Shown piece by piece: positions 6,937 to 35,794 of a stretch of DNA of 41,081 nt. The position numbers were made by a program, and so were the translations under genes. The DNA lies in IMG/VR virus record IMGVR_UViG_3300027733_000094, positions 1 through 41,081 of that record; one strand, 5' to 3'. The DNA is from a virus (Duplodnaviria; Caudoviricetes). Below the pieces are notes generated by a model. The model saw only the letters and a list, made by a program, of their open reading frames with translations. It had not been told where the DNA came from and did no database searches. The first letter of the stretch is position 1. The number at the start of each line of letters is the position of its first letter.

Positions 6937-8043
6937 TTATACTCCAAATCCCATTGCTCGTGCAGTACCAACTGCGGCATCTCTTGCCTCAAGGTTTGCT
7001 GCTCTGGTTTTTTCACGATTAGGGTGGTTGATTGCAAAGTCGTAAACTTCTGCAATAGACGCTGCTGGCTTCTTGCCAGTGACATCATTGTTTAGAAAGC
7101 GCATAACATTTGGGTCATCAAGATTGAATGCGGTTGAATCCATTTCCCAAACCTTGGATAGTGTTCCAATGATTGGTTCAGCAATATCAAACATAGTCAG
7201 TTTAGGGTTAGACGCTAAACGTTCGGCATATGCTGGGTAAAGTTTCTGTGCCTTTGTTGAAAGGTCTGCAGTAAGGTCTTCAAGTGTCTTAACACCTGAT
7301 GCGATATCAATACTGTATTGATTAATTTCTTTTGAACTAAGGTTATTGATTCCATAGTTCCTAACCAATGTTTTTACATTCGCAACTTGCTTGATTGCAG
7401 ATGATGGAAGAGTTTTTGTATCTCCGATATTAACCTTAGCCCAAATGAATGATTCAGTAAATGTCTTGGGGTCAAATAATGATGGAGTAATTATAGTCTC
7501 ATACCCACCAGTAGTTGCCTTGCGGGTGGTTGACTTACCAGAAGCACCAGCCTCGGTATTAATCTTAGCAAGAAAATCTACTTTGTCTTCTTCAGAAAGA
7601 AGTGCTGCATCAAAACCAATTGATTTAGAAATCTTGCTTAAAAGTGCATCAGATACAATTCTGTCATACTGGGTAATCGTAGAAGTCAGTCCAGTATTGC
7701 CAGGATTGTTCTGAGTCATTACATCAAGAACATCCCAAGGTGACTGCTTCTTGCCCTGCTTAAATGCTGCTACAGCGCCATCAACAATGTCATTCCATAG
7801 GTTCTGACGAGCAGAATCTGTAGGTTGACGGTTGGCTACTCCTAGTAAGTATTCAGTCAGGCTTACCTGGGCAGATGTAGGAAGTTTTGCAAAAGACTTT
7901 TTGATAATAGAAGCCTCAGCCTTGACAAGATTTCCCTTGCCGTCTGGCATCCAGATATAAGTCTTTTCTTGCTTACTTCCCTTAGGGGGAACAATTATTG
8001 TACCGCCACCCGCTGGTGGTGGTGTGGCTGCTGGACCTGCCAT
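6937..8043 (-). CDS. Putative internal virion/ejection protein
   Basis: 368 aa; helical, coupled to the 1938-aa gene. Confidence 0.5.
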   Translation of the reverse strand: MAGPAATPPPAGGGTIIVPPKGSKQEKTYIWMPDGKGNLVKAEASIIKKSFAKLPTSAQVSLTEYLLGVANRQPTDSARQNLWNDIVDGAVAAFKQGKKQSPWDVLDVMTQNNPGNTGLTSTITQYDRIVSDALLSKISKSIGFDAALLSEEDKVDFLAKINTEAGASGKSTTRKATTGGYETIITPSLFDPKTFTESFIWAKVNIGDTKTLPSSAIKQVANVKTLVRNYGINNLSSKEINQYSIDIASGVKTLEDLTADLSTKAQKLYPAYAERLASNPKLTMFDIAEPIIGTLSKVWEMDSTAFNLDDPNVMRFLNNDVTGKKPAASIAEVYDFAINHPNREKTRAANLEARDAAVGTARAMGFGV

Positions 8044-11000
8044 TACTTATTCTCCCTCATATTGTCATCTTCAAAATATCTAGTAATCATTCGTTGCATT
8101 GTTGGGTCCCACAAGTCATAACTTGAAGCCAAGTATTCTGCCCACTTGTCTTTTACCAGTTGTTTTGAACCAGTTGGTGCATCAGCGTATGCTTTTGCAT
8201 AATCGTTACGGTACTGAATGAAAGCCTTAGCGTGTTGCCAGAACTGTGTCTTGCCAAACTTATCCATAAACTCTTTGTTATTTACAACGGTGAATAGTCC
8301 TTGTGCTTGAACCCAAGACTTGTTTCCTTTTGTTGCGCCTTTTTGATACTCTGTATACCAGGCACGAGAAGCAGGTCCAAGAGTATCGTTTGCGTATGCA
8401 CGCAATCTATCTTTTAGTTCTGGAACGCTAAGGTAACTTGCGTATCCAGCATCCTTTGCAGCCTTGTTAAGACGATTCTTTTCAGTTGTATATGCTGACC
8501 AGAAGCGAGACTTTTCAATCTCTTCTTCGACTAACTGAGGTGTCTTAAGCGTGCTATTAACCATAGTTCCATCTGGAAGACGGGCAGTAGTTGAGTTAAG
8601 GAACTTATTTACTTGAGGACTGTACTCCTTAGGCAAATCTGCAACCATAAGACCAACTGTAGATGGGTCAACTTGACGCAAAGATGTTGCCAGTCCAGGA
8701 AAATCTTCCCAGATTCTGTTGTAAGCCTTTACGCTAGGCGTAATGTAGGTTATAGACTTCTGTGAAGATACAAAGAGTCTGTCCATTGGGAATGTTTTGC
8801 CAGTCTCTTTAAGCATATGAGCGCTGAAATCTTCTCCAGCCTTCTTGTATGCCTCAGTGCTTGACATACCTTGAGCGGTATTGTTGTTTACAAGTGAGAA
8901 GAAATAATCCTGATAAAGACTATCTGGTCGGCTATCCACATATTGTGGTGTACCAAGAAGTGAGAAGAACTGTGTGCGGAATTTACGGAAGTAAATATCA
9001 CGTGCACCATCCATAATTGACTGCTCTGTAGGTGCTGGACCCTTGCCCATATCGTGCAGAATTCCCTGACGATTAGCCTCAGAAATCCAAGAATCGACGA
9101 ACATCTTATCTGTCTTATCTGGAGCAAGGTATGTCTTTAAGTTTCTTGCCCAGGCAGGAGTAAATGTATTTGCTAATTGCTTACCAGTGTTAGGTTCAAT
9201 TCCATATGGGAATAGTTCTTCATAAGAATATCCAGGAATCTTACCAAAAGTTTTATCTATTAACTTAGAAATCTGTTCTTCGGTTCCTGGCTTGCCGCCA
9301 TAAACCTTGCTAAGAGCAATTGGCACCATCCAGGTTGCACCTGGGAAGTTGGCAACATAGTTAGTTGCACGAGCATTAACGATAACGCCTTTACCATTGT
9401 TTAGACCCATTTCCTTTGTTCCAGGAATGAGAAGGTATTGAGCCTTCATTGGGTCATCAACTGGGTTACCATTCTGGTCTACGCCGAATGAGTTATAAAG
9501 CCCATAATATGAGTTAAGGAACCCAGCAAAACGCTTAGGCTTCTGAACTGCAAAGCGTGAGTAACGATATATACCAGATGCTGCCGCATTAGGAAATGTT
9601 GCTAATCCTCTTGCTAAATAAAGTGCACGGTGTTGACGTGGGATTGTGTAGAAAACCTTTGCCACTTCATCAACAAGTTCAGTTGCTGCAGCGTGATGAA
9701 TACGATTAAGTGTGGATACATCAATCTGATAACCCTGTGCAAGCAAGCGTTCCGCACGCTCTGCAACTAGGGTTGTATGACGAGTAGTTCCCCAAACTTC
9801 ACGGACCATATTTTCTGGCTTCATTAAGAAACGCCAAGCGCCAGCAAATGCTGAATCAAATGCACGTGATGCAGAAGCAACAATATTAGTAGGGTTAGCA
9901 TATTCAATTTCAAGTGGTTGAATAGGAACCATCTGGTCTAACTTGTCTCCAAGTAGTCCACGAAGTTGAGTTGCCTCTACTGCATTTTGCGATGCTGCTA
10001 GTTTAGCCTCAGATGTTGGTAGGTATCGATTGACATATGTAATATTTTCATCAATCATACGCACGATTTCGTCAGGAGAACGACCCATTTGAACAGCATA
10101 CTTGCGAGCCTGTCCAGTAGTTGCCCACTCTAGGAGTTGGTCACGAGACTGTCCAGATAGAACTCTGTCGACAAGAATATCTCCACGCATATGGTTATTA
10201 ACCACATAAGCCAGTTCATCAAAGTAAACTGGGTCTGCTACGTTAGTAATAGTCTTAGGACTACGAGACATAACAGTTGTAATCTTAGCAACGGTTGCTT
10301 TATTGCCAAGGAATTCTAGGTTACGTGAAGAGTTGTTGGCGATTTCAGACATATAGCCTTCGCCAAAATGCTTACGACTAGCAAACGATGGGAACTCTAG
10401 AGTCTGACCATTAGATAGTTGAACTTTCTGAACCTCTGGAAGAAGTGGTTTCTTCTCATAACGTCCTGCAGATACAGAAAAAATATCAGCCTGTTCTTTA
10501 ATCTTAGGTCCAAGTTTTTCTAGAACTGCACCAATATTATCGTAAGCCTTAGCAATCTGTGCATCAAGAACATTAAGTTCTGGTGCAAGAGTATTAATTT
10601 GACCAACAGCCTTTTGCAATACCAATTCGGCTGAGCGAATTTCAGATGCGTAACGTGAAGCAGCAATAGCCTCTGGGCTTAAAGAGCCACCCTTAACTCC
10701 ACTTGAAACAACAACCTTTATCTTATTGCCATTTACTTCGGTTACTGTAAATTTTGTGTTGCGTGGAAGAAGCCATTCAGATTCTCCTGCTGCAATCTTT
10801 GCATTTACTTCAACTCTCATACCAATTGGAAAAATTCCTTTTGTTCCAGCAGGATTTACAATCTCAACAATAACACCACGCATTGGACCATTCTTTGGAT
10901 TTGCGTACCATCCAGTACCACGAGCAAATCTATCAGCAATTTTTTCACCTAACGATGTAGAAGAAAATGCTTTATCAGTAAATGATTCTCCAGGTTTCAG

Positions 11001-13859
11001 GTTACGTATTTCTGCAGCAAGTTTTGTATCTTCAATACCACGAAATGTAGTAATTGGAGTTTCAAGGACTGGTGCTTTTGAAATAAGTGAATCTAGGTCA
11101 CTAACAATTTTATTAACCTTTACTGTTTCTTTTGCGGACGCCTCATAACCTCCACGTAAAACAGTATTGACAAGACTATAATCTCCACTGCCATTTGTAT
11201 AGTTTATTAATGAATCTTCGTATTGCTTATACTTTTCAACAGTAAAGCCTTTTGAGCGCTGGCTATTAAGTAAAGAAATAATTGAATTTTCATCAGTAAT
11301 AACTGGAGCAATAATTTCTTTTAGTTCTACTCCAGTTGTTTGCTTTCCGATACCCTTAAGGGTTTCAATGCGAGACTTTAGACTGTATACAGATGGTACC
11401 TGGATAGGCTTACCATATTCAATTGTGTATGTATTAAGTTTAGATTCAAGATTTGCTACGTCACGTTCTGCTTCGCGGAGGGCTTCCTTAATTTGGTCAG
11501 CCCAGTCGCGCTTTGATGCTGGAGATACTCCAGGTGTGTTAGAGAAATGTGATTCGTGTGTAGCATAAATTTGGTCACGAATAATAATAGCCTGATTGTA
11601 TTCTTCAGACAACGCTTTAACTTCGCGTTGAATTTCTTTCTTTGCGCTAGGCAAAAGAGTTGCAGATTTCTCTACATTACGCATTACAAAGTTTCCGCTT
11701 TTAACAATAGCGCCTTTGGCTGCACTTGTAAATAGTGGAACAGCAAACTTGCTTCCTTCTGCCAATGTAGCAGCAAGAACAGGTTCAAAGACTGAGTTCT
11801 TTGGAATATATGAAAAACGATAAAGTTGTGCTACAGAGAAGATTCTGTTTCCAGACTCAAAGATTCCTTTAGCGGCTGATGCTGTGCGTTGAGTACCAGT
11901 AGTTATTGCACCCTTAACAACACTTTTTTCCTGACGAGCAGCACGAAGAATCATACGGTCTAGGTCACCCATTGGAAGCATTGGCATTGAGTTCTGCAAT
12001 TGACGTTGAGTTTTAATATCAACAGATACTCGAACACCAGTGGGGTCCATAGAGTGACCGTGTGTACGCAGGTTTCCGTGCATTGAATACACATCCTGCA
12101 TTAACTCATCAACCATATTGTCAATTACTGCATCGTTGTAGTATCCACGAGAGTAAGCAATTGTACGAGCAAGTTCTTTATTTGCATTCTTAATTACATC
12201 TGCTCTTTCACCATCTGTTTTAGAGGATACAAAGCGGTCAATAAGATTGCGACGATAATCAGATACGCTCATCTGGTTCAAATCGTGTGTTTTAATTGTT
12301 GTTGTTCCGTTACGGAATAGAGGAACATCATCAAATACTGAAATAAGTTCGTCAACGCCATTCATAGGACGAAGACCAGAGTTTGTAATTATACCCTTAG
12401 GCATATAAGTGCCGAACTGACGCAGAAGAACTGTGACTGGACCATTCATACGTCCGCCTAAAACAGTCTGTGCTACGCCACCAATTTCAGGATTAGTAAA
12501 GTCGCGCTCTGTAATGGCTGTTTTAATCTTTCCAGCCTTAGAACGTACCGCTCCTGCAGGACCTTGTAGTCCCTTTGGCTCCATTGGCTTATAGTTTTTG
12601 CCAAGAGCAAGCGGTTCAACGTTAAGAAGTCCAGTAGTCTCATCAAGTTCCTGGGTAAGAAACGCATCGTAAACATCCTGATGCTTTGGTTCCTTTTTGA
12701 TTGCATCATCAAATGCGCTCATCCAGCGGTTGCGCTGTTCTGCTGTGTATTCAGGCAGTTTGCCATTGATAATGTAGTCTGAACGGAATGATGCAGTGCC
12801 ATCACCAATAACCCATAGGTCATCGCTAAGATTTAGTTTAGTTAGTCGGTCAATTGCTGGACCATAACCTTTGTCTGCAAGAAGAAAGTCTGCAACAACC
12901 TTTGGGTCCTTAGTAGATTTCATAAGGTCTGGTAGTTGCGGGTTAAAACTGTGCTTCTTTACAATTCGAGTAATGTCAATAATGTTATCTGAGGCAGCAA
13001 GGTCCATAACATCTTGACCAATGACTGTTCTAGTTCCAGTAGTTCCACCACTATTAACAAAGTCAATATGGTCAATCATATCTTTTTCAAACCCTGGCAT
13101 TGCCTCAGCATCGGCAGCCTTAAACTTTGTCCTTAGTCCAGCACGAGTTGCTCCAGCCTTAGCAAGCGCACCTGCTCCTGCAAATGCTACGTTAATAGCA
13201 ACGTTCTTGATAACAAAGTCATTGGCACCAGTAATGTACTTGCCAAGTGTATTGTCTACAAAATTCTTTTGGATATCTTTGTCATTCCACAAATCAATCC
13301 CGCTTACGTCTACACCATTAGCCTTAAGCACAGATGCTTCAGCAACACCAAGTAGGTTGAATGGATTCTTAAGCATTGATTGACCAAGAGAAACACCTTC
13401 TCTTGTAAGAACTTCTTGCCCATTAATGGTTTCATACTCGTTGCCAGTGCGATTGTACGCATCTTTGACATCAGATAATTGAAAACCTTTACCGAATTGT
13501 CCACCTTGATATAACTTGCTAGTAGGGTCAGACAATAAATTTATAGTAGAAATAGGTCGAGAGATGACAGGACTAAAGACATACTTCTCAGCCTTCTCAC
13601 CCAAATAAAGAATTGGGTCAAGAGCCTTCATTGGCGCCTCTGATTGAAGTGCAATTCCAGCCTGTTGCAGTTTCTTTGCCACTTGCTGCTGTGCAACAAT
13701 GCCTACGTTGGCTGCAACTTCAGGATTCTTAAAAGATTGTCCCGCTAAAGATGCAGCACTTGCTACTGCAACTGCACCTGGGTTAATTCCAAGTATGCCG
13801 CTGGCAGTATTCTTTGCAACTTTAGAAATGCTATCTACAAAATCACCCCAGAAGGACAT
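8043..13859 (-). CDS. Large putative internal virion/ejection protein with embedded ADP-ribosyltransferase domain
   Basis: 1938 aa; ~aa 870-1050 contain YT..Y..VN..LR, TFRG, FSSTS and GESEWLLPR (R-STS-ExE, VIP2/C2/Alt-like). Confidence 0.85.
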   Translation of the reverse strand: MSFWGDFVDSISKVAKNTASGILGINPGAVAVASAASLAGQSFKNPEVAANVGIVAQQQVAKKLQQAGIALQSEAPMKALDPILYLGEKAEKYVFSPVISRPISTINLLSDPTSKLYQGGQFGKGFQLSDVKDAYNRTGNEYETINGQEVLTREGVSLGQSMLKNPFNLLGVAEASVLKANGVDVSGIDLWNDKDIQKNFVDNTLGKYITGANDFVIKNVAINVAFAGAGALAKAGATRAGLRTKFKAADAEAMPGFEKDMIDHIDFVNSGGTTGTRTVIGQDVMDLAASDNIIDITRIVKKHSFNPQLPDLMKSTKDPKVVADFLLADKGYGPAIDRLTKLNLSDDLWVIGDGTASFRSDYIINGKLPEYTAEQRNRWMSAFDDAIKKEPKHQDVYDAFLTQELDETTGLLNVEPLALGKNYKPMEPKGLQGPAGAVRSKAGKIKTAITERDFTNPEIGGVAQTVLGGRMNGPVTVLLRQFGTYMPKGIITNSGLRPMNGVDELISVFDDVPLFRNGTTTIKTHDLNQMSVSDYRRNLIDRFVSSKTDGERADVIKNANKELARTIAYSRGYYNDAVIDNMVDELMQDVYSMHGNLRTHGHSMDPTGVRVSVDIKTQRQLQNSMPMLPMGDLDRMILRAARQEKSVVKGAITTGTQRTASAAKGIFESGNRIFSVAQLYRFSYIPKNSVFEPVLAATLAEGSKFAVPLFTSAAKGAIVKSGNFVMRNVEKSATLLPSAKKEIQREVKALSEEYNQAIIIRDQIYATHESHFSNTPGVSPASKRDWADQIKEALREAERDVANLESKLNTYTIEYGKPIQVPSVYSLKSRIETLKGIGKQTTGVELKEIIAPVITDENSIISLLNSQRSKGFTVEKYKQYEDSLINYTNGSGDYSLVNTVLRGGYEASAKETVKVNKIVSDLDSLISKAPVLETPITTFRGIEDTKLAAEIRNLKPGESFTDKAFSSTSLGEKIADRFARGTGWYANPKNGPMRGVIVEIVNPAGTKGIFPIGMRVEVNAKIAAGESEWLLPRNTKFTVTEVNGNKIKVVVSSGVKGGSLSPEAIAASRYASEIRSAELVLQKAVGQINTLAPELNVLDAQIAKAYDNIGAVLEKLGPKIKEQADIFSVSAGRYEKKPLLPEVQKVQLSNGQTLEFPSFASRKHFGEGYMSEIANNSSRNLEFLGNKATVAKITTVMSRSPKTITNVADPVYFDELAYVVNNHMRGDILVDRVLSGQSRDQLLEWATTGQARKYAVQMGRSPDEIVRMIDENITYVNRYLPTSEAKLAASQNAVEATQLRGLLGDKLDQMVPIQPLEIEYANPTNIVASASRAFDSAFAGAWRFLMKPENMVREVWGTTRHTTLVAERAERLLAQGYQIDVSTLNRIHHAAATELVDEVAKVFYTIPRQHRALYLARGLATFPNAAASGIYRYSRFAVQKPKRFAGFLNSYYGLYNSFGVDQNGNPVDDPMKAQYLLIPGTKEMGLNNGKGVIVNARATNYVANFPGATWMVPIALSKVYGGKPGTEEQISKLIDKTFGKIPGYSYEELFPYGIEPNTGKQLANTFTPAWARNLKTYLAPDKTDKMFVDSWISEANRQGILHDMGKGPAPTEQSIMDGARDIYFRKFRTQFFSLLGTPQYVDSRPDSLYQDYFFSLVNNNTAQGMSSTEAYKKAGEDFSAHMLKETGKTFPMDRLFVSSQKSITYITPSVKAYNRIWEDFPGLATSLRQVDPSTVGLMVADLPKEYSPQVNKFLNSTTARLPDGTMVNSTLKTPQLVEEEIEKSRFWSAYTTEKNRLNKAAKDAGYASYLSVPELKDRLRAYANDTLGPASRAWYTEYQKGATKGNKSWVQAQGLFTVVNNKEFMDKFGKTQFWQHAKAFIQYRNDYAKAYADAPTGSKQLVKDKWAEYLASSYDLWDPTMQRMITRYFEDDNMRENK

Positions 13860-17165: not shown

Positions 17166-19034
17166 CTATCCGTATGTTTGTGCCCATTGCTCTGCAAAGG
17201 CTTCATCTAAATTCAGTGAACCACGACTGGACATCTGCGCCCTGGTAGCCCATCGGTTGGTTTGATACTGTCCCACTCTGGAGGACTGTTGCATTAACTC
17301 ACGGATGCGAATAATCGCAAACCATAAAGCCATAACGCAGTCGGTAGGGTTCTTGGTGTCTGGCTTCCAGGTAATCAATTCTTGAACCAAAGTCTTAAGA
17401 CCCTCAGAGCCTTCGTTAGAAGGTAGTTCAATGATATTGTTATCGTTAAAGCGTCCATCACGTGCACTGCCAAAAAGCATTGCCATAGATGCCACACCAA
17501 AAGATGTGTCCCACTTATTCTTACCAGTAAAGTGTGAGTTTAACTGGCACCCATACTGGGCTAAAAAGTTTCTTAAGTTCTCATCCAGGGCGTAAGCCTT
17601 CTGGTGAGCGTTGATTTCAATTCTTACTTCCTGGGGTTTGTACTTCTCAACCCAGTCTTCAATCAAACTTTGAATCTTGGCTGGCGTTGGGTCAGTCATA
17701 TTGATGCAGTCAAGAACATAAATCTTGCCATCGGCTCGATTGTATGTACAGATGACGGCACCTGTTGCACCTGCCATAGCAGGGTCAAGTCCCATTACCG
17801 TGTAAGAAGATTCGATATTCTTAGGATGACCTGGAGTTCCAGCCTTTAGTGGTCCGCGTTTACGCATTCCGTTGACAGAGTTTTGCACGCACAGGGGTGA
17901 GAAGATTGAATCTTCGGTGACGTCTTCTTGCTGGTAGACCATAGCCCAGACCGACGGAGCGACCTCAGAGCGGCGTGTAAAGAGAGAAGGTCCATCCCAC
18001 TTGGGAAAAAGTCCTTGCTCATCAGGTTCATCCAATTCGTTTTCTTGCTGGTCCGATTTAGCCCAGAGTGTTTTCCATTCAGAAGGCTTTTCATCAAACT
18101 CAAGAACCGCTGGCATAGCGCAGTAGGTGAAGGGGGTCTTGCCACCCGACCACTGCTTTGAATCGCGCAACATCTTGTAGAGGTCAATCGGTGCCACTCT
18201 GGTTCCGACGATAATTAACTTACCGTGTCTACCAAGACGGGTAATAACTTCTTTCTGAAGCCAGTCCATCTGTTTTTCCCACTCGTGGGCATTGCTACCC
18301 ATAACTGCGTCATCAACAATAATCAGGTCAGCACGAGCACCGTAAATCTGGGAACCGATACCAAGGGCTTGAACCGTTGGGTCCTTCTCGCCTGAGTCTC
18401 GACCAGTACCGAGGTAAATCATATCTGCCTGCCACTGGGTGGCATCTGCCTTGTATCCACCATTAGGTCCAAAGGCAACCTGTAGTTTGGTGTAGGCAGG
18501 GTGTGAAAGTCTTGTCTTGATTGCCCCAAGAAATTTACGAGCCATACCCTGAGTCTTAGAGACGATAATGACTCTAGTGTTGGGATTGGTCACAATTCGG
18601 TAGACCACGTAGTTGGTCGTGATGACCGTAGACTTAGCGTGCTCAGGTGGGACGTTAATTAGGATTCTGTTGGTAGCCGCTGGCTCATAGGTCATAGCGG
18701 GATGTAGCCATCTAGGTTCCCGACCCTCAATCATATCGAACCAGTTAAGGTGATGTGGGAAGAGGCGGGTATCTAGGAACTGCTCACAGAAATCAGGGAA
18801 CTCGATATCTTTAAGTTCTTTTAGGTCAGCCTTGATGCCCTTACCTAGAAGGCGGGCTTTCTCAGAGCGTTCTTTGAACTCAGGGTCTTGCATCACCCAT
18901 TGTCTAAAAGTTGTGTCATTACGGTTGACGGTACCCATAGCACCAGTAATGGTGTTACCTTGCTCCAGTTGGAGGAGTACCCGTTCCTGGGCTTCCTTCT
19001 TGGAGATGTCCTGCTTTCCAGCCTTACGTCCCAT
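17166..19034 (-). CDS. terL: Terminase large subunit with N-terminal TerS-like HTH extension
   Basis: Walker A variant VPPEHAKST, Walker B LIIVDD, coupling GTR, nuclease GLDPAM and DCVMAL; ATG at 19034 after GGGACA. Confidence 0.92.
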   Translation of the reverse strand: MGRKAGKQDISKKEAQERVLLQLEQGNTITGAMGTVNRNDTTFRQWVMQDPEFKERSEKARLLGKGIKADLKELKDIEFPDFCEQFLDTRLFPHHLNWFDMIEGREPRWLHPAMTYEPAATNRILINVPPEHAKSTVITTNYVVYRIVTNPNTRVIIVSKTQGMARKFLGAIKTRLSHPAYTKLQVAFGPNGGYKADATQWQADMIYLGTGRDSGEKDPTVQALGIGSQIYGARADLIIVDDAVMGSNAHEWEKQMDWLQKEVITRLGRHGKLIIVGTRVAPIDLYKMLRDSKQWSGGKTPFTYCAMPAVLEFDEKPSEWKTLWAKSDQQENELDEPDEQGLFPKWDGPSLFTRRSEVAPSVWAMVYQQEDVTEDSIFSPLCVQNSVNGMRKRGPLKAGTPGHPKNIESSYTVMGLDPAMAGATGAVICTYNRADGKIYVLDCINMTDPTPAKIQSLIEDWVEKYKPQEVRIEINAHQKAYALDENLRNFLAQYGCQLNSHFTGKNKWDTSFGVASMAMLFGSARDGRFNDNNIIELPSNEGSEGLKTLVQELITWKPDTKNPTDCVMALWFAIIRIRELMQQSSRVGQYQTNRWATRAQMSSRGSLNLDEAFAEQWAQTYG

Positions 19035-19071
19035 TAAGTTGTCCCAATCTCGGTGCCCTCTGGAGTGCGAA

Positions 19072-19620
19072 TATAACACCAATAACGCCTACAAAATAAC
19101 GGCATAACTGTGGCGCATTCCTACGAAGTAGGTTCGATATTTATATATTATATCGAACGAGTGAAGCCCTAGCGAAGCGAGTTCGCTAGAACTTTTAATA
19201 AGTTCTTGCTATATAAGATAACCCGTTGGAACGGGTAAAACCGAACACTTGTATGTATATATATTTATATATGGGGGCTACTATATATAAAAGCCCTGGT
19301 CAGGGCGCTTATAACAGAAATATATTATGGGACCATATATACTATATAGTCGACTGATTTAATCAATACCCCCTCAAACCCTCACCGAGTTCTGTAGTTC
19401 TGCAACCCTCACCCTTTACCACAGGGTTAGACATTCTTTTACCTTATGTTTATTTCTAGTTAAGGCATATTAAAACCGTCTTTCTTGGCTAATACCGAAA
19501 GTTCAAGGCGTTCTTTGATTGGTTGACTATCCCCTCTCCAAATCTACGGGGCAATATATAAGTTACTCAGTGGTAACATATCGGGGAAGGTTTCCCAAAT
19601 TGTCGACAAATCGACATTGA
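19072..19620. other. AT-rich non-coding region dense in inverted and direct repeats (candidate origin, packaging site or late-promoter region)
   Basis: Inverted repeats at 19132..19158, 19169..19189, 19188..19207, 19221..19236 and 19293..19306; ATAAC x4; AACCCTCACC x2; separates divergent arms. Confidence 0.55.
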
Positions 19621-19657
19621 CAGAGTGCGACAGTTCACAGGATTCTCTCAGGAAATC

Positions 19658-19677
19658 GTTATCAAACTGTTATCAAA
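19658..19677 (+). promoter_or_regulatory. GTTATCAAA direct repeat with 11-bp period upstream of early promoter
   Basis: Copies at 19658..19666 and 19669..19677. Confidence 0.45.
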
Positions 19678-19693
19678 AAAGCCTTGTTTGCTC

Positions 19694-19722
19694 TTGACAC
19701 GCCTAAGTTGTGCCTGTAGATT
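19694..19722 (+). promoter_or_regulatory. Early sigmaA/sigma70-type promoter
   Basis: TTGACA-17 nt-TAGATT; predicted start site ~19730. Confidence 0.8.
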
Positions 19723-19774
19723 TCATCTTAGAAGGTCAGGAACTACCCCGACCTCAACACGACAGGAGCACCAA

Positions 19775-20038
19775 ATGTACATCAACAACACACAGGCAGA
19801 AACAATCTTCGACCTTATCGCAAAGCAAGATGAGAAGTTATCTCTCGGAGAATATCGCCTAAACTTCTTGGCAAGCCGTGAAGAACTCGTTGAACTTATG
19901 GAGAAACTCGCTCCAGTAATCAAGGACACAGGTTGGGCAGATTCCCCTGAGTGGCTTGCACAGGTTCACCGCAAAGCCCTAGAAAACGACCTAGCCGAGA
20001 AGCGTGCAAAACTCGCCGAGGCGTTCGGCGTAAAGTAG
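19775..20038 (+). CDS. First early protein, hypothetical (87 aa)
   Basis: GACAGGAG RBS at 19761, ATG at 19775. Confidence 0.8.
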   Translation: MYINNTQAETIFDLIAKQDEKLSLGEYRLNFLASREELVELMEKLAPVIKDTGWADSPEWLAQVHRKALENDLAEKRAKLAEAFGVK

Positions 20039-20045
20039 CAAGGAA

Positions 20046-20115
20046 GCCCCTCCCCGCGAAGGCGGCACAGGTTCACGACCTAGAGGGGCACGAGTCAGGG
20101 AAACAACTCCCCGAC
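20046..20115 (+). ncRNA. tRNA-like three-way-junction element copy 1 plus leader hairpin
   Basis: GCCCCTC/GAGGGGC; CCGC-GAAG-GCGG; AGG-TTCACGA-CCT; then ACG; hairpin 20094..20115. Confidence 0.7.
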
Positions 20116-20135
20116 CAAAAACAGGAGGCAATAAA

Positions 20136-20600
20136 ATGACTGAAGACTTCAACGCTTACCGATTCGGCAACAACTTACCAAAGCGCCTACAAAATGGCTT
20201 CTTTAACAAGTTACACGAAATCGAACGCGAGGCGCGTTCTCGTGGCGCTTGGCAGGCAAATAGAGACCTAGACGAAATCGTCAAGAACTACCGAGCAACA
20301 CAAAAGGAGCGTATGCAGGCGATTCAAGACGAGGAAACTCAGAAGCGAGCCGAGATTCGTGACAAGCAGGACGAGTTGCACCGCCAACTCAACGCCCTTC
20401 AAGAAGAACTCAACCAAGTTTACGAAACAAGGAGCGAAGCGGTGGCAGATATTGACCGAGAGGCTTGTGCTTTGCCTGAGTATCAAGTCAAAAAGCAGGT
20501 GCATAGTATCCTTTGGAATACCGCCCACGAATACGAGCAAATCAAGCAACGCGAACTAGTCGCAAATTATGAAAAGAAGATAGAAAAAGCCACAGTTTAA
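20136..20600 (+). CDS. Early coiled-coil protein
   Basis: 154 aa, E/Q/R-rich; ACAGGAGG RBS. Confidence 0.8.
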   Translation: MTEDFNAYRFGNNLPKRLQNGFFNKLHEIEREARSRGAWQANRDLDEIVKNYRATQKERMQAIQDEETQKRAEIRDKQDELHRQLNALQEELNQVYETRSEAVADIDREACALPEYQVKKQVHSILWNTAHEYEQIKQRELVANYEKKIEKATV

Positions 20601-20606
20601 GGGCTA

Positions 20607-20675
20607 GCCCCGCCCGCCTAGGGCGTGCCGATTCGATTCGGAGCGGGGCACGAGTGGAGGCAACAATGCCGCCAC
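20607..20675 (+). ncRNA. tRNA-like three-way-junction element copy 2 plus leader hairpin
   Basis: GCCCCGC/GCGGGGC; CGCC-TAG-GGCG; CCGA-TTCGAT-TCGG; then ACG; hairpin 20654..20675. Confidence 0.7.
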
Positions 20676-20698
20676 CAAATCAAGACAGGAGCACGACA

Positions 20699-20881
20699 AT
20701 GACACGCAAGGACTTCGAACTAATCGCAGGAGCGATTGCAGGAATGCAAGACAAATACACGGGAGAGGATTGGTCTATAAATGGGGCTATGTATCCATTC
20801 GCCCGCCAACTGGCGGACGCTTTAGAGAAATCAAATCCACGCTTTGATTCTGAGAAGTTCCTCAAGGCTTGCGGGGTATAA
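20699..20881 (+). CDS. Small early protein of the common MTRKD...NPRFD...AC phage family (60 aa)
   Basis: GACAGGAG RBS; MTRKDFELIA...NPRFDSEKFLKACG. Confidence 0.8.
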   Translation: MTRKDFELIAGAIAGMQDKYTGEDWSINGAMYPFARQLADALEKSNPRFDSEKFLKACGV

Positions 20882-20888
20882 ATCCCCA

Positions 20889-20961
20889 GCCCTAGCCCCT
20901 TGACAGAGGGCAACTGCTCGCGACAGACTAGGGCACGGAGGCAGGGCAACAATGCCAAGCC
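20889..20961 (+). ncRNA. tRNA-like three-way-junction element copy 3 plus leader hairpin
   Basis: GCCCTAG/CTAGGGC; CCCT-TGACAG-AGGG; CTG-CTCGCGA-CAG; then ACG; hairpin GGCA-ACAA-TGCC. Confidence 0.7.
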
Positions 20962-20985
20962 CCATTTTAGACAGGAGAAAACAAA

Positions 20986-21123
20986 GTGAAACAGTGCAAA
21001 GTTACAGGGTGCAACTCTGTAGAGTTAGTTTATTCAGGGATTGACGCTTTTATTCTTGGCGTTGAAACAGAAACCATCTGTTACGACCACGCCAACGAGC
21101 AGGCGCAGGCGGTCACACAATGA
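20986..21123 (+). CDS. Small putative Zn-binding protein (45 aa)
   Basis: GACAGGAG plus GTG; MKQCKVTGC...ICYDH; ATGA overlap with next gene. Confidence 0.75.
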   Translation: MKQCKVTGCNSVELVYSGIDAFILGVETETICYDHANEQAQAVTQ

Positions 21124-21554
21124 CCACAGGCAAAGAACTAAAAGCAACACTCGGCAAGATTGAAGGCGGGGAACTCTTCGACATCTTTAACCTTCTCCCT
21201 GATATCGCAGGGGGCGAGGCTTGGTCGGCAGAGATTAAAGACTGCGCCCGCTCAATGGCTGATTGGCTAGACGAGGGCAGAGACTATGACCTAGATGACC
21301 TCCGCGACCTTGGCGGGGAGTGGTCTAACTCAGAGTGCGAGGACTACCACAACAACATAAACGCACGAGTGCAAAGCCTTAGCCTATGGGCAAGTAATGA
21401 TTTAGATTGGCAAGTGGACGAGGTTAATCAGTTGTCAAGTTATCCAAGCCTCACAGACTTGAACACGCAGTATCTCTGCTCCGCTATGCGCCAACTATGG
21501 GACGCAGTAGCAGACCAAGCACACCAAAACACAGAAGAAGGAGGCGAAGAATGA
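21120..21554 (+). CDS. Acidic early protein, candidate Ocr-like DNA mimic
   Basis: 144 aa with 31 D/E versus 9 K/R; DYDLDDLRD segment; acidic tail. Confidence 0.55.
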   Translation: MTTGKELKATLGKIEGGELFDIFNLLPDIAGGEAWSAEIKDCARSMADWLDEGRDYDLDDLRDLGGEWSNSECEDYHNNINARVQSLSLWASNDLDWQVDEVNQLSSYPSLTDLNTQYLCSAMRQLWDAVADQAHQNTEEGGEE

Positions 21555-21712
21555 AACTCACACGACGCGGAGAAATTGTATTCAAAGTTCTTTTAATTGC
21601 TGGCGCACTGCTCCTTCTTTGGGGCGTGTACGAGGTGGTCGGCAACCTATGGTGGACAGGTTCGGGTTATTGCTGGGGTTCAATGGTCGAGTGTATGGCG
21701 GGTGGGCTATGA
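21551..21712 (+). CDS. Small membrane protein (53 aa)
   Basis: MKLTRRG plus one TM helix; GGAGG RBS. Confidence 0.75.
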   Translation: MKLTRRGEIVFKVLLIAGALLLLWGVYEVVGNLWWTGSGYCWGSMVECMAGGL

Positions 21713-21867
21713 CATACGGGTGCGGGGTTGGTGGGTGCTTGACTTGTTATCCGTATCAGTACGCTTGCGCGGACTGCGGAGCAAGGTGGGAAAAGCCTAT
21801 CAACAATGGAGAGGTTTACACCTGCGAAGATTGCGACTACATTAACAACTCAAAGGAGGAACTATGA
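21709..21867 (+). CDS. Zn-ribbon protein (52 aa)
   Basis: MTYGCGVGGCLTC..CADC..CEDC; ATGA overlaps. Confidence 0.7.
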   Translation: MTYGCGVGGCLTCYPYQYACADCGARWEKPINNGEVYTCEDCDYINNSKEEL

Positions 21868-22139
21868 ATCAAGACTCGATTTCTTGGGGCGAGTTGGCAG
21901 AACTAACTCACGCCACACAGGTGGAGCGGTTTAACTTCTGCACTTGCGAAGAGCAGGAACAGTTTCCATATTCAGATTGTCCAAGACCAAACTGCAAGCA
22001 ATGTGGGGATAAAGTAATCACAGAGGGCAACGGGTGCACAAAATGCAACAATGAATTCTGCGGTTATTGTTGCGAGTTCGACAACACCCCGTTGTGCGGT
22101 GACCATCTTGTGTCAATAAAAGATTGTGATTGTTTGTGA
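21864..22139 (+). CDS. Cys-rich putative Zn-finger protein
   Basis: 91 aa with multiple CxxC; AGGAGG RBS. Confidence 0.75.
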   Translation: MNQDSISWGELAELTHATQVERFNFCTCEEQEQFPYSDCPRPNCKQCGDKVITEGNGCTKCNNEFCGYCCEFDNTPLCGDHLVSIKDCDCL

Positions 22140-22225
22140 TGATGTTCTTGATTATTGCAGGCTTTCCAATTATAGTTCTAACCGTGCTTGGAATCCTAAG
22201 CACGCAACCAATAGCAGACGAATAG
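22139..22225 (+). CDS. Hydrophobic micro-protein (28 aa)
   Basis: TGATG coupling; MMFLIIAGFPIIVLTVLGILSTQPIADE. Confidence 0.5.
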   Translation: MMFLIIAGFPIIVLTVLGILSTQPIADE

Positions 22226-22239
22226 ACAGGGGCAAGGAA

Positions 22240-22407
22240 ATGGAAAAAGATTATGAAGTTAAGATGACATACGTTGTCTATATCAACACGGAAGCAGAGT
22301 CGGAAGATGACGCTATCGAAACAGCAAAACAAACAGCAGAAGAACAGCACGGAAATCGTATATCAGAGTTCGCACAATTTGAAATCGTAAATGGACAGGA
22401 GAAATAA
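22240..22407 (+). CDS. DpnD/PcfM-like small acidic protein (55 aa)
   Basis: YEVKMTYVVYINTEAESEDDAIE pattern; GACAGGGG/AAGGA upstream. Confidence 0.6.
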   Translation: MEKDYEVKMTYVVYINTEAESEDDAIETAKQTAEEQHGNRISEFAQFEIVNGQEK

Positions 22408-22409
22408 AA

Positions 22410-22586
22410 ATGATTAACTACTTTACAAACTGGAATCAAACAATGCAGGACGCATACAACAACGGAGAAATCTTTCTATGGGCTTGGTCAATAGGGGCTA
22501 TGCTACTTCCCTTCATAGGCGTGGCACTGGTAGTTGCCGCCCTTGGCTTAGGTGCTTTCAAACTATGGGAGGAACGCGGACTATGA
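22410..22586 (+). CDS. Small membrane protein (58 aa)
   Basis: GACAGGAG RBS; MINYFTNW...IGAMLLPFIGVALVVAALGLGAF. Confidence 0.7.
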   Translation: MINYFTNWNQTMQDAYNNGEIFLWAWSIGAMLLPFIGVALVVAALGLGAFKLWEERGL

Positions 22587-22690
22587 GCACACAAGAACAA
22601 AAGATAGATGAAGCAATATCAAGTTTAGAGCAGGCTATGCAAGCGTTGCGAGACTTAGGACTCATCACAGAGGCGGACGAAGATGACTAA
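22583..22690 (+). CDS. Small acidic helical protein (35 aa)
   Basis: GGAGG RBS, ATGA overlap; MSTQEQKIDEAISSLE... Confidence 0.65.
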   Translation: MSTQEQKIDEAISSLEQAMQALRDLGLITEADEDD

Positions 22691-22862
22691 GCGCACAATT
22701 ACTGCAGAGGTGGACGAAGAATGGTTCACTATATTGGGGCAGATAACCCGACATCAAGATGGTTTCGTATGGCTTGGCGTAGAGGAGGAGACTTTACAAG
22801 ACCGAGCCAACCGCACTAACCCTTATCTATTAACAACCAAAGAGGAGGCAGGCAATGGCTAA
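22683..22862 (+). CDS. Hypothetical protein (59 aa)
   Basis: MTKRTITAEVDEEWFTILG...; fills the gap with 8-nt overlaps. Confidence 0.65.
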   Translation: MTKRTITAEVDEEWFTILGQITRHQDGFVWLGVEEETLQDRANRTNPYLLTTKEEAGNG

Positions 22863-22995
22863 GTATGTAGTCTTATGTCAAGCAGATGAGTGCGAGGCAG
22901 AGAACGAAGATTGGGAGGACAAGAACGGTACATACTGGTTCACTTGTTCTACTTGTGGTTATGATAATGAAGTTGTCTATGATGGGAGTAAATAA
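22855..22995 (+). CDS. Zn-ribbon protein (46 aa)
   Basis: GAGGAGG RBS; CQADEC...CSTC. Confidence 0.7.
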   Translation: MAKYVVLCQADECEAENEDWEDKNGTYWFTCSTCGYDNEVVYDGSK

Positions 22996-23228
22996 TGGGA
23001 GAACAATATCGGATATCTTATAAACTCGAAGGTGTAAGGATTGTTAATGTGTGGTTACCTGATGGACTTGAACCCCCAAAAGGGTTTCATCTGTGGGAGT
23101 ACGCACAACAGGACGAATGGTTGTACCAACATCAAGCACATATGAATGTGCACCTTGAAGATATACACCACGCAGAGGCAGAGTCAGTGCTGAAGGTGCA
23201 TCATCTCAAGGCTGTAGTTAATGAATAG
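22995..23228 (+). CDS. Hypothetical protein
   Basis: 77 aa; TAATG coupling. Confidence 0.7.
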   Translation: MGEQYRISYKLEGVRIVNVWLPDGLEPPKGFHLWEYAQQDEWLYQHQAHMNVHLEDIHHAEAESVLKVHHLKAVVNE

Positions 23229-23574
23229 CGGGAGAGACTGGCACGCAGAGGGGCACTGTTCGGGTCACCCTGACCCTGACTTGTGGCACTACACGAATTC
23301 AAACCTATTAGATGAGCAACAACTGGAAGTCTTACGCAGTGTTGAGGCTATAGAAATCTGTCGCTCTTGCCCTGTTAAATCGGAGTGCTTGCAACAGGGG
23401 CTAGAGCCTGAGAATTTATTGTGGTCTATAGGTGGCAACGGTGCTATATGGGGAGGCAGGCTTGCCTCAGATAGAGCACTGATGGCGGGTTACAAACCAA
23501 CTCATAATGCAGTGCGCCACGAACAGCGACACGCAAGGAATGTAAAGGCAAAACTTGGTAGAATTCTCAGATGA
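23221..23574 (+). CDS. whiB: WhiB-family [4Fe-4S] transcription factor
   Basis: W...C...DPDLW...A..ICRSCPVKSEC...GAIWGG with four conserved Cys. Confidence 0.9.
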   Translation: MNSGRDWHAEGHCSGHPDPDLWHYTNSNLLDEQQLEVLRSVEAIEICRSCPVKSECLQQGLEPENLLWSIGGNGAIWGGRLASDRALMAGYKPTHNAVRHEQRHARNVKAKLGRILR

Positions 23575-23981
23575 AAATAAGAATGATGCTTCTTATCCTG
23601 ATGTTCGTATTCGCTTGGACATTTCCATTAACCCATAATGTAGAGGTCAAGGTTAATATCGGTAAGCCTTTAACTAAGCAGACCAAGGCTACCTATGAAC
23701 AGAAGCAAGAGAATAAAGTGATGGCTATGCGCTACGCCAAGGCAGGTTGGAACTGGGATGCAAAGCAAAGACGGTGTGCCTTCTCACTCTTTATGAAAGA
23801 GAGCAAGTTCGACCACTTAGCAAACAACCCTAAGTCAACAGCCTTTGGCATAGGGCAGGTACTTAAAGAGACAAGCAGAGAACCTGCCATACAGATACTG
23901 CACGCATATAAATATATCGAGCACCGATATTCCACTCCCTGCAGGGCACTAGCCCACCATAATCGCAGGAACTGGTATTGA
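23571..23981 (+). CDS. Secreted or anchored lytic transglycosylase (SLT-like, actinobacterial type)
   Basis: Hydrophobic N-terminus; KES catalytic Glu, AFGIGQ, YIEHRYSTPC, terminal WY. Confidence 0.8.
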   Translation: MKIRMMLLILMFVFAWTFPLTHNVEVKVNIGKPLTKQTKATYEQKQENKVMAMRYAKAGWNWDAKQRRCAFSLFMKESKFDHLANNPKSTAFGIGQVLKETSREPAIQILHAYKYIEHRYSTPCRALAHHNRRNWY

Positions 23982-24163
23982 TGTTTGACCTTTACAACCT
24001 AGAGAACCCAACCTTTGCGTGTATCTGTGGTTGTTTAATGTTTGAGATTACCGTAATGTGGGATGTTGAATCAAGAGAGGTGGGCTGGTATGATTTACGA
24101 CAGAGGTGCAAGGAATGCGGGTCAGAATCCACAGCCCCAACACCAATGGATTGGGATACATAA
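23978..24163 (+). CDS. Small Zn-binding protein
   Basis: 61 aa; CICG...CKECG. Confidence 0.7.
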   Translation: MMFDLYNLENPTFACICGCLMFEITVMWDVESREVGWYDLRQRCKECGSESTAPTPMDWDT

Positions 24164-24330
24164 TGCCAACGTATGATTATAAATGTGAAGTATGTGGTGG
24201 TACTCTAGAGATACAACGTGAGTTCTCTGAACAAACAAATATAATGTGTTGCCAACAGGCTATGCAGAGAGTATGGTCAGCACCAGCAGTCAAGTTTAAT
24301 GGCACTGGTTTCTATAGCACAGGAGGATAA
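24163..24330 (+). CDS. FmdB-family zinc ribbon protein (55 aa)
   Basis: MPTYDYKCEVCG...CC..M.RV.SAPAVKFNGTGFYST. Confidence 0.85.
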   Translation: MPTYDYKCEVCGGTLEIQREFSEQTNIMCCQQAMQRVWSAPAVKFNGTGFYSTGG

Positions 24331-24331
24331 G

Positions 24332-24457
24332 ATGGATGTACAGATTGCAAGTTGGAAAGAAGTTGTTGAACTCTACTACTCAGAGTTGATACAAGATTAC
24401 CCTGAAGGATTGTGGGTTGACTCAGGTGAAGTGGACTATGACTCCAAGGAGTCTTGA
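24332..24457 (+). CDS. Small acidic protein (41 aa)
   Basis: AGGAGG RBS; MDVQIASWKEVVELYY...; converges on the sigma gene with a 22-nt overlap. Confidence 0.55.
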   Translation: MDVQIASWKEVVELYYSELIQDYPEGLWVDSGEVDYDSKES

Positions 24458-25077
24458 GGTTCAGTGTCTTCATCTCGATAAGGTTTGAAGCCACCAATCT
24501 TATGGATTAGTTTCTTGATTGCCCGCTTGTTACGCATACGAGCAGTGTCTTCACTACCTAACTCCATCTCTTTGGCTATGTCATCAAAGTGCATAGCCTC
24601 AGCGTAACGCAGGAACAATAACTTCCTATCGTCTTTACTTAATTTCCAAAATGCAAAGTCAACTTCAATCATCATAGCCATTAGATTGCCACCCTCATTA
24701 GGTGCACTGGGGCGTCCAGGTCTACCAAGATTTAGTTGTGCTGTTAGGTTAAAGTCACCGCGTAATACAGATGGCAACAGTGCTTCGACCATATCGGATT
24801 CATAGTAAAACAAATCGCTAGTCTCATAGCCGCCTGACTTAGCCTTCCAACGCTGGCAATAATCTAATGCCTGATTGCGTAGGCTACGGTAGATAAGATT
24901 CTTTGCGTCCTTCTCACCGATTGCTTCCCACTCATTTAACTTATTAGGATGTTCAATGAACCACTGATACAAGGATTGTCTGATGTCATCAAAGTCTATC
25001 TCGAACTTGCGATGGTACTCAGTAGCAACAGAGTCAACCACATAATCCCAACGCTCAATGCGTTCCCACTCAATCAT
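24436..25077 (-). CDS. Phage sigma-70 family (ECF-like) sigma factor
   Basis: Region 2-like DDIRQSL...RNQALDYC and region 4 HTH LSKDDRKLLFLRY...DDIAKEM...RAIKKL. Confidence 0.8.
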   Translation of the reverse strand: MIEWERIERWDYVVDSVATEYHRKFEIDFDDIRQSLYQWFIEHPNKLNEWEAIGEKDAKNLIYRSLRNQALDYCQRWKAKSGGYETSDLFYYESDMVEALLPSVLRGDFNLTAQLNLGRPGRPSAPNEGGNLMAMMIEVDFAFWKLSKDDRKLLFLRYAEAMHFDDIAKEMELGSEDTARMRNKRAIKKLIHKIGGFKPYRDEDTEPQDSLES

Positions 25078-30395: not shown

Positions 30396-30556
30396 AGTTG
30401 CTCCTGTCGGTAGTTGAATAGATAGCCCTCCCTAAGAGGACAGGAGGTGACTCAATTAGGAAGAACTATCTAATATTCAGTTGATTATTATATATAATAT
30501 ATATTATATATAGGCGCCTAGCGCCTTATATAGTTTTTATTATTAATAATAATTTA

Positions 30557-30599
30557 AGTATACACATACCCTGACCTGATTGGAAGTCTTAGACACGCC
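30557..30599 (-). promoter_or_regulatory. Promoter of replication operon with upstream GACAC box
   Basis: Minus strand TTCCAA-17 nt-TATACT; GACACGCC at 30592..30599 on the plus strand. Confidence 0.55.
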
Positions 30600-35320: not shown

Positions 35321-35770
35321 AGCGTACCTCCAAGGTATTTACTTAAGTGATATAATTAATGTATGAAAGTTTGCACAAACTGCAGTGAACTTAAACCGCT
35401 ATCTGAGTACCATAAAAACAGTAAACGTTCAGGTCAAGTAAAAGAAGACGCTCAATGTAAAGAATGTACATCTAGCCGAAGAAAACAGTACAGACTAAAT
35501 AATAAAGAAAAGATACGCGCTGAAAATAAACGTCGTAATCCTGGATGGGATATAGATAGATATAATCAACAGTTGGAACTTCAGGAGAATTGTTGTGCCA
35601 TCTGTAAGACAAATGACCCAGGACTATCTGACTGGTGTTGTGACCATTGCCACGATAGCGATAGACCTAGAGGATTGCTCTGCGTTAGATGCAACGCTGG
35701 ACTTGGGTACTTCAGAGATAACCCTGAGTACCTTCAGTCAGCAATTGAGTATCTAAATAAATGGCAGGAA
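35321..35770 (+). mobile_element. Free-standing homing-endonuclease-like insertion cassette
   Basis: Flanked by duplicated MAGR starts of the nozzle gene (35771..35782 and 35309..35320); opposite orientation; own promoter. Exact boundaries uncertain. Confidence 0.65.
35348..35356 (+). promoter_or_regulatory. Extended -10 promoter for leaderless endonuclease mRNA
   Basis: TGATATAAT (TGn-TATAAT) with 6 nt between it and ATG 35363; no SD. Confidence 0.7.
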
Positions 35771-35794
35771 GCGACCAGCCACGTTACTCCTTAG
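35363..35794 (+). CDS. Endonuclease VII-type HNH endonuclease
   Basis: N-terminal CTNC...CKEC; CAIC...DHCH...RGLLCVRCNAGLGYFRDN. Confidence 0.88.
   Translation: MKVCTNCSELKPLSEYHKNSKRSGQVKEDAQCKECTSSRRKQYRLNNKEKIRAENKRRNPGWDIDRYNQQLELQENCCAICKTNDPGLSDWCCDHCHDSDRPRGLLCVRCNAGLGYFRDNPEYLQSAIEYLNKWQEATSHVTP

Follow-up and report, generated by a model that had tools for sequence, protein, structure and literature searches.

Between the first early genes of a phage genome lie three short RNA elements that mimic tRNA in acceptor stem, T arm and elbow and are without an anticodon arm, an assignment strongly supported by a length ruler, covariation of the G19-C56 type, canonical T-loops in relatives and a C74 of host type. 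Host RNase P, perhaps with a further cut after C74, is predicted from the sequence to split the early message at these elements, a reading towards which we lean slightly. An earlier note on this DNA had described them as tRNA mimics that punctuate the early transcript; of that reading the mimicry holds up, and RNase Z cleavage and a decoy role fare less well.

The window analyzed here is a complete virus record of 41 kb (41,081 nt). A family scan of its 54 proteins identified, among others, a terminase, a portal protein, WhiB, a sigma-like factor and an ADP-ribosyltransferase domain. By terminase, the closest named cultured relatives are Streptomyces podoviruses of the Beephvirinae (43-45% identity), and two lake metatranscriptomes contain contigs 95-100% alike to the window; from these relatives and contigs we infer an actinobacterial host. 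Other features of the window include a 1938-aa protein with an ADP-ribosyltransferase domain (8043-13859, minus strand), probably an ejected virion protein; an Endonuclease VII gene (35363-35794, plus strand) within the structural block, on the opposite strand; and palindromic AT-rich stretches at 30470-30560 and 19130-19340, which separate gene blocks and are possible origin or packaging signals.

The predicted main early promoter (TTGACA-17-TAGATT, 19694..19722, plus strand) is the top site in 19000-25000, with 10/12 matches; it is divergent from the terminase gene and reads into small early genes without known families. ORF 1 (19775..20038, plus strand, 87 aa, no family match) has a leader with a hairpin at 19733..19754 on the same strand (folding z -1.44, weak alone) and a Shine-Dalgarno sequence, GACAGGAG, at 19761-19768. 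This hairpin resembles the one behind each element, and the covariance model gave no match to a tRNA-like fold ahead of it. On the same strand follow ORF 2 (20136..20600, 154 aa, no family above the cut-off), ORF 3 (20699..20881, 60 aa, no family match) and ORF 4 (20986..21123, 45 aa), which starts a run of small, mostly overlapping genes without further elements. RNA data on 19000-25000 consist of seven contigs, 151-301 nt long, from two studies of lake metatranscriptomes; none of the seven crosses an element and one stops at 20039, assembled contigs telling neither RNA ends nor strand nor level.

All three elements are on the plus strand. Element 1 (20046..20092) begins 7 nt past a stop codon and comprises a 7-bp P1, a D-like arm (CCGC/GCGG) whose loop ends in G, a T-like arm (AGG/CCT) with loop TTCACGA, then A, and the tail A73-C74-G75; behind it, at 20094..20128 (plus strand), stand a fourth hairpin (20094-20115) and the Shine-Dalgarno sequence ACAGGAGG (20121-20128). 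Element 2 (20607..20652), 6 nt past a stop codon, likewise has a P1 of 7 bp, with arms CGCC/GGCG (loop TAG) and CCGA/TCGG (loop TTCGAT) and tail ACG, and is followed at 20654..20691 (plus strand) by a fourth hairpin (20654-20675) and GACAGGAG (20684-20691). Element 3 (20889..20937) starts 7 nt past a stop codon; its 7-bp P1 encloses CCCT/AGGG (loop TGACAG) and CTG/CAG (loop CTCGCGA), its tail is again ACG, and a fourth hairpin (20940-20961) with GACAGGAG (20970-20977) occupies 20940..20977 (plus strand). P1 spans 20046-20089, 20607-20649 and 20889-20934, with ACG directly after each, giving cores of 44, 43 and 46 nt, or 47, 46 and 49 nt with ACG. Sequence and a fold check reproduced the positions, stem pairs and loops that the earlier note had assigned; it had overlooked that each element precedes a fourth hairpin plus Shine-Dalgarno sequence.

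Folding z-scores of elements 1 to 3 are -3.30, -2.32 and -2.42. A structure-only descriptor matched three times on the plus strand between 19001 and 25000, where 200 dinucleotide shuffles averaged 0.04 matches, and four times on the entire plus strand of the window, against 0-1 in 25 shuffles. The fourth match (30491-30532) is an AT-rich palindrome and not an element, and a covariance model search found no fourth copy in the window.

Further copies were collected by pattern scans of viral contigs and from 80 terminase-linked loci and were selected by parsers; one parsing step retained 73 of 92 candidates, two of which were later discarded as chance, and one of these, L181, re-entered with short-arm copies. 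The resulting family holds 128 distinct copies; of 38 related phage loci that extend 2.9 kb or more upstream, 36 carry one copy or more. A covariance model, R1, was built from 104 copies and gave 38 matches on terminase-linked loci, every one on the early strand. Homologues retain the pairing that had been noticed in the three window copies: in 32 distinct terminase-linked copies, aligned by fitting to the model, 90.2% of cells are paired, where slid controls reach 33-56%, and both partners change in 10 of 14 pairs. Family stems contain 40 G-U pairs and 4 A-C pairs, and therefore the fold belongs to the message strand. Across the family P1 has 6-8 bp and P3 has 3-5 bp, 86 of 115 copies start 4-11 nt past a stop codon, position -1 is A or C in 114 of 115, and the hairpin behind the element opens at position 75 in 41 and at position 77 in 38 of 101 copies.

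The next start codon is mostly 38-64 nt off, and such a position between stop codon and Shine-Dalgarno sequence would suit a fold whose elbow docks on the ribosome, at the L1 stalk or the E/P site, and which aids termination and re-initiation on the next gene; tRNA elbows are indeed read by the ribosome. We consider this role very improbable, since loci of the CRP-box type, described below, have the next start 88-123 nt away, behind a new promoter, and conservation of C74 and of position -1 points to end-processing enzymes.

More distant relatives carry a divergent class, for which the search gave 17 matches, each of them on the early strand, where shuffles gave 0.8. Its T-loop is canonical and its T stem has 5 bp; a purine and an acceptor of 6 bp follow, and the D-loop, which carries GG or AG, is stemless. 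The search imposed the T arm and the 12-nt length but not strand, D-loop or tail, so the R-C-(G/T) tails of this class were free to vary; a pair count on its T stem would be circular and was left out. In L106, L110, L111, L116, L117 and L123, a long conserved hairpin stands upstream of the divergent mini-tRNA, and downstream of it are two hairpins that are short and palindromic. BLAST matches of the divergent element are mostly annotated tRNA-Pro genes, and its only Rfam match is a weak one, on the opposite strand, to RF04354 (L572-L580). The consensus of that family, named 'Plastid-ycf2 5UTR', can be read as the reverse complement of a tRNA T arm plus acceptor, and RF04354 may therefore be antisense tRNA. 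The stemless D-loop is shared with the tRNA-like domain of tmRNA, from which the elements differ in having no tag frame, G3-U70 or encoded CCA.

Beyond these phages, R1 matched 2 of 151 genomes from the order of the actinobacterial genome G001; both matches are well formed and follow a stop codon on short contigs with phage-like genes. Across the phylum it matched 1 of 151, which looks like chance, and a bacterial pattern scan (1 of 64 parts) proved too loose, the best of the 100 of its 120 loci that were scored with R1 reaching 25 bits and lacking a D-like helix. Single high-GC copies were seen in other phage-like contigs, namely L612 (G050), L613 (G150), L181, L200 and L250, and the family therefore reaches past this lineage; one of these copies follows a probable single-stranded DNA-binding gene. 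The element is absent from the whole record of phage Immanuel3 and from the right arms of Manuel and FlowerPower, and BLAST with the window region and with three elements found no cultured phage with an element. Two loci with 94-95% terminase identity, L076 and L078, do without it, and so the element is dispensable.

A first tRNA-like property is a length ruler. In each of the 100 copies with a 7-nt T-loop, the distance from T-loop to position 72 is 11 nt (52 copies) or 12 nt (48 copies); one search pattern permitted only 10-12 nt, and 32 copies from L002-L151 found without a length limit were also all 11 or 12. P1 and P3 lengths trade off (rho -0.68), and the junction is nearly constant (1 nt, C-R-M, one purine). 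RNase P is described as measuring 12 bp from the T-loop and as reading the T-loop and RCC end as well (PMC11143913), and an acceptor of 7 bp is counted among the major determinants for RNase P (PMC4201824). In the window, elements 1 and 3 measure 11 nt, one short of 12, as do about half of the copies; P1 is 7 bp in all three window copies, and members with 6 or 8 bp depart from that acceptor length. Two departures concern the T arm: a bulged purine breaks the acceptor/T stack, and C takes position 58 of the T-loop in 52 of 100 first-class copies, elements 1 and 3 included, and in 44 of the 52 short ones. U54-A58 occurs in all 16 divergent copies, where the search required it.

A second tRNA-like property is the elbow. 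In all 94 copies with C56, a G closes the D-like loop (87 at -5 and 7 at -6), while the three U56 sequences all have an A, and no G, at the end of that loop. A directed metagenome scan added five U56 copies, all with A, from two of the same sequence types. Of 120 matches in a search for non-C56 copies, three were genuine, all U56, and neither A56 nor G56 was found. We read this G-C to A-U co-change as a tRNA G19-C56-type elbow pair, on a count of one to three events. Actual tRNA genes are not involved: ARAGORN called no tRNA or tmRNA gene (0 genes), and there was neither a match to RF00005 nor an anticodon arm.

The loop TTCACGA of element 1 also resembles the L3 loops of HDV and CPEB3. A self-cleaving ribozyme, HDV-like or of a new class, would agree with a 7-bp P1 starting with G, a YYCRCG loop, a next hairpin often followed by CAA and a position -1 that is never G in the first class. 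We rate it as extremely unlikely. A P2 pseudoknot with CRA is feasible in 5 of 101 copies versus about 2% in shuffles, the junction past P1 is AC and not G in 100 of 101, position -1 is G in 7 of the 128 copies, no Rfam ribozyme matches, and the loop grades into canonical T-loops. The HDV-like form, which calls for a P2 pseudoknot, a G at J1/4 and a catalytic C in J4/2, fails on topology, and a pseudoknot between T-loop and tail was dismissed on inspection.

The third property is the tail. It had been given as ACG, which is correct for the three window copies; family-wide it is R73-C74-(A/G/T) and not strictly ACG. Among 48 tails not fixed by the pattern, 10 of which stem from a model trained on ACG tails, ACG occurs in 18, ACA in 10, ACT in 9, GCG in 7, GCA in 2 and CCG and CGA in 1 each; C74 is thus found in 47, R73 in 46 and C75 in none of the 48 copies whose tail was free in the search. 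In three genomes of one actinobacterial order (G001, G010 and G018), 95 tRNA genes were called (L582-L611, L616-L675); of the 94 that could be parsed, all 94 encode C74, 31 encode C75 and only 25 encode full CCA. All three genomes possess RNase P RNAs carrying the GGU motif. The tRNAs of phage Immanuel3 encode C74 in 22 of 22 cases (L566:16040-17988). Another Actinomycetota genome, G177, encodes CC in 31 of 31 tRNAs, and hence the C74-only signature is not phylum-wide.

These tails bear on the choice of nuclease. In B. subtilis, C74 forms a critical pair, a G74 substrate being cut over 100-fold more slowly; RNase P of this organism cuts CCA-less precursors in vivo, and its RNase Z is poor on long 5' leaders (PMC1874595). 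Cytidines past the discriminator are described as suppressing B. subtilis-type RNase Z (PMC7479834), and in CCA-encoding tRNAs of S. coelicolor the cut falls between C74 and C75 (PMC4681348). With C74 near-invariant, and such cytidines unfavourable to RNase Z of the B. subtilis type, classic cleavage by RNase Z behind A73 appears less likely than the earlier note proposed. The RNase Z model TIGR02651 scored above its cut-off in 0 of 31 genomes of the family of G001, a count taken on incomplete MAGs in which actinobacterial orthologues may score low.

A cut by RNase P at G1 would most likely be the first event, because this enzyme reads C74/RCC and cuts CCA-less precursors, and RNase Z works poorly where 5' leaders are long or cytidines follow the discriminator. 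RNase P would bind the elbow, pair C74 with its P15 GGU and cut 5' of G1, at 20046, 20607 and 20889. A possible second cut or trim at C74/N75, as in S. coelicolor tRNAs, would free an RNA of about 46 nt. The downstream message would then open in a stem, which could be the mimic or else the fourth hairpin (positions 75-77), and a cut like that of S. coelicolor would place its start at, or two bases before, the fourth hairpin. The opening stem would protect the 5' end of the downstream message, in the same layout as the leader of the first gene. In some copies, element 3 among them, transcription from an embedded promoter would yield almost the same 5' end with no cut needed. Further difficulties attend this scheme: C75 is avoided, so that RCC pairing is partial; the upstream message, once cut by RNase P, would have a bare 3' end 4-11 nt past its stop codon; and the U56 variants may go back to no more than one or two events.

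A released mini-tRNA could alternatively act in trans, as the main product, by titrating RNase P, the enzyme that adds CCA, or a toxin or defence that targets tRNA. The earliest transcript carries several copies, and acceptor stems are similar to those of host-type tRNA-Leu, -Glu and -Arg. There is also a precedent in YrlA of M. smegmatis, an actinobacterial RNA that mimics D arm, T arm and acceptor and is cut by RNase P and CCA-tailed in vivo (PMC4201824). Y RNAs differ, however, in being free-standing, in having a Ro60-binding stem and in adjoining the Ro60 gene (PMC4201824), and in the window no TROVE family was found among the 54 proteins and no YrlA match in the Rfam search. Copies of the element occur singly at gene junctions, neither in arrays nor as separate genes, and a plain promoter or a long hairpin can occupy the same slot. 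With no anticodon loop to offer to anticodon nucleases and CC(A) avoided, a trans-acting RNA seems improbable, and the decoy for tRNA-targeting defences that had been suggested for these elements finds little support on the same two grounds.

Some copies contain more than the fold. An embedded -35/-10-like pair, consisting of TTGACA or a near variant in the D-like loop and an A2/T6 -10-like hexamer 17-18 nt further, is present in 35 of the 128 copies, element 3 included. Its promoter-like pair (20900..20929, plus strand), which had escaped the earlier note, has the -35 sequence TTGACA at 20900-20905, 18 nt and the -10 sequence CAGACT at 20924-20929, and initiation from it would fall near A20935 (A73). 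A CRP-type box directly precedes the -35-like hexamer of 22 of 44 copies versus 1 of the 84 others, counts made on related and not independent copies. The box ends 10-11 nt before the -35, a spacing shared with free-standing promoters of these phages. A recurrent promoter layout, TGTGA-N6-TCACA, 10-11 nt, TTGACA, 17-18 nt and a -10 that often starts with G or C, was seen in L076, L079-L081, L087, L088, L121, L133, L165, L182, L411, L418 and L423, and it suggests control of early genes by a host protein of the CRP family. Separately, in L089, L094, L096, L100, L133, L135 and L138, the first early gene is preceded, upstream of terminase, by promoter-like TTGACA sites in tandem, three to five of them at intervals of about 85 nt. 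The 8-mer CTTAAGAC, counted on either strand with genes included, occurs at 1.5-4.1 per kb in L165, L180, L182, L208 and L226 and at 0.1 per kb in the window; it is a possible operator or protein-binding site.

The embedded promoters bring the elements close to the PeSLs of T4-type phages, repeated intergenic cassettes in which a stop codon and a Shine-Dalgarno sequence go together with a promoter that overlaps a terminating stem-loop, and which lie between interchangeable early genes (PMC2839356). By analogy, the fold might go uncut by RNase P and end or shield the 3' end of the upstream message, as a terminator, a pause or an exonuclease roadblock, perhaps CCA-capped after trimming, and a promoter inside or behind it would restart transcription. 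The 35 copies with an embedded pair, the CRP-type boxes (22/44 versus 1/84), the promoter or CRP-type box that lies directly behind some other copies, and the upstream stop codon as a constant anchor all speak for this explanation, which we nonetheless consider unlikely. A PeSL is a simple terminating hairpin and always has a promoter (PMC2839356), whereas the fold here is a tRNA elbow and an embedded pair is missing from 93 of 128 copies, elements 1 and 2 among them. No U-tract follows the elements and a terminator scan flags none there; moreover, a plain terminator needs no elbow pair, ruler, C74 or A/C at position -1 (114/115).

Comparison of relatives shows what else can fill the slot. L076 and L078 hold only promoter-like sequences plus a simple hairpin there. 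In Streptomyces BF phages the same gaps contain helices of 10-31 bp, often with a central mismatch, followed in many cases by a small hairpin and a CAAGGGAGAGAG-type Shine-Dalgarno sequence (Immanuel3, L566:38396-44354; Manuel, L567:8055-13377; FlowerPower, L568:8037-14269), and these helices are probably unannotated RNase III sites of the T7 style. Reportedly, RNase III punctuates the early mRNA of T7 (Dunn and Studier 1973), where, as proposed for the elements, host nuclease signals between the first early genes split a polycistron. The T7 signals differ in being long double-stranded stems, which the Streptomyces BF relatives do have; the three window gaps have none, their longest helix being 7-9 bp. 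Since promoters, elements or long helices occupy it in different relatives, the slot appears to serve for creating a fresh 5' end that is protected, by means of a promoter in some phages, of a tRNA mimic in others and of what is probably an RNase III hairpin in yet others.

Other systems share single features with the elements. In mascRNA/menRNA and in mitochondrial tRNA punctuation, RNase P and RNase Z are guided to their cuts by a tRNA-shaped unit embedded in a longer RNA; those cases are eukaryotic or organellar, involve real tRNAs or mimics with a reduced anticodon arm, and are not repeated between phage genes. The P1/P7 C4 antisense RNA and the phage M3 RNA, listed as RNase P substrates (PMC11143913), are likewise phage RNAs matured by host RNase P, but each is a single functional RNA. 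DUF2693-FD (RF02926) and salivarius-1 (RF03030) are alike in size, about 45-55 nt, with model lengths of 49 and 56 nt; at E values of up to 10, neither model matched the elements of the window or those of four relatives, a search with no genuine member as positive control. In distinction from both, the present elements are repeated at early gene junctions, bear the actinobacterial C74 signature and sometimes embed a promoter-like pair.

The novelty of the motif, which the earlier note had proposed, withstood comparison with Rfam 15: no family matched the elements, at gathering score in the window and at E up to 10 on the elements, and none matched in 16 related loci. In the literature searched, the motif was not found described, tLRNA as a term aside. 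The main text of Weinberg 2017 names neither DUF2693 nor salivarius (PMC5737381), and the motif may be among the 8,495 unnamed candidates of Fremin 2023 (PMC10690425). The element would work like a tRNA-mimic processing signal and belongs to no family tested.

Taken as a whole, these observations lead us to a tentative picture that we rate as somewhat short of probable. In actinophages, an early polycistron would be under mitochondrial-style punctuation by anticodon-less mini-tRNAs tuned to the host N73-C74; some copies would hold a CRP-regulated promoter, giving the same 5' end by cleavage or initiation, and the cassette would be interchangeable with the RNase III hairpins of Streptomyces phages. 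If the elements are cut as predicted, tRNA punctuation, known from organelles and MALAT1, is a strategy of phages for their early mRNAs too. The elements would then be among the smallest natural RNase P substrates, at 43-49 nt and with variants that have an 11-nt ruler and C58, and would offer a handle on how actinobacteria process CCA-less tRNAs that encode C74 only. They would also provide a compact, portable processing signal for expression systems in Streptomyces or mycobacteria.
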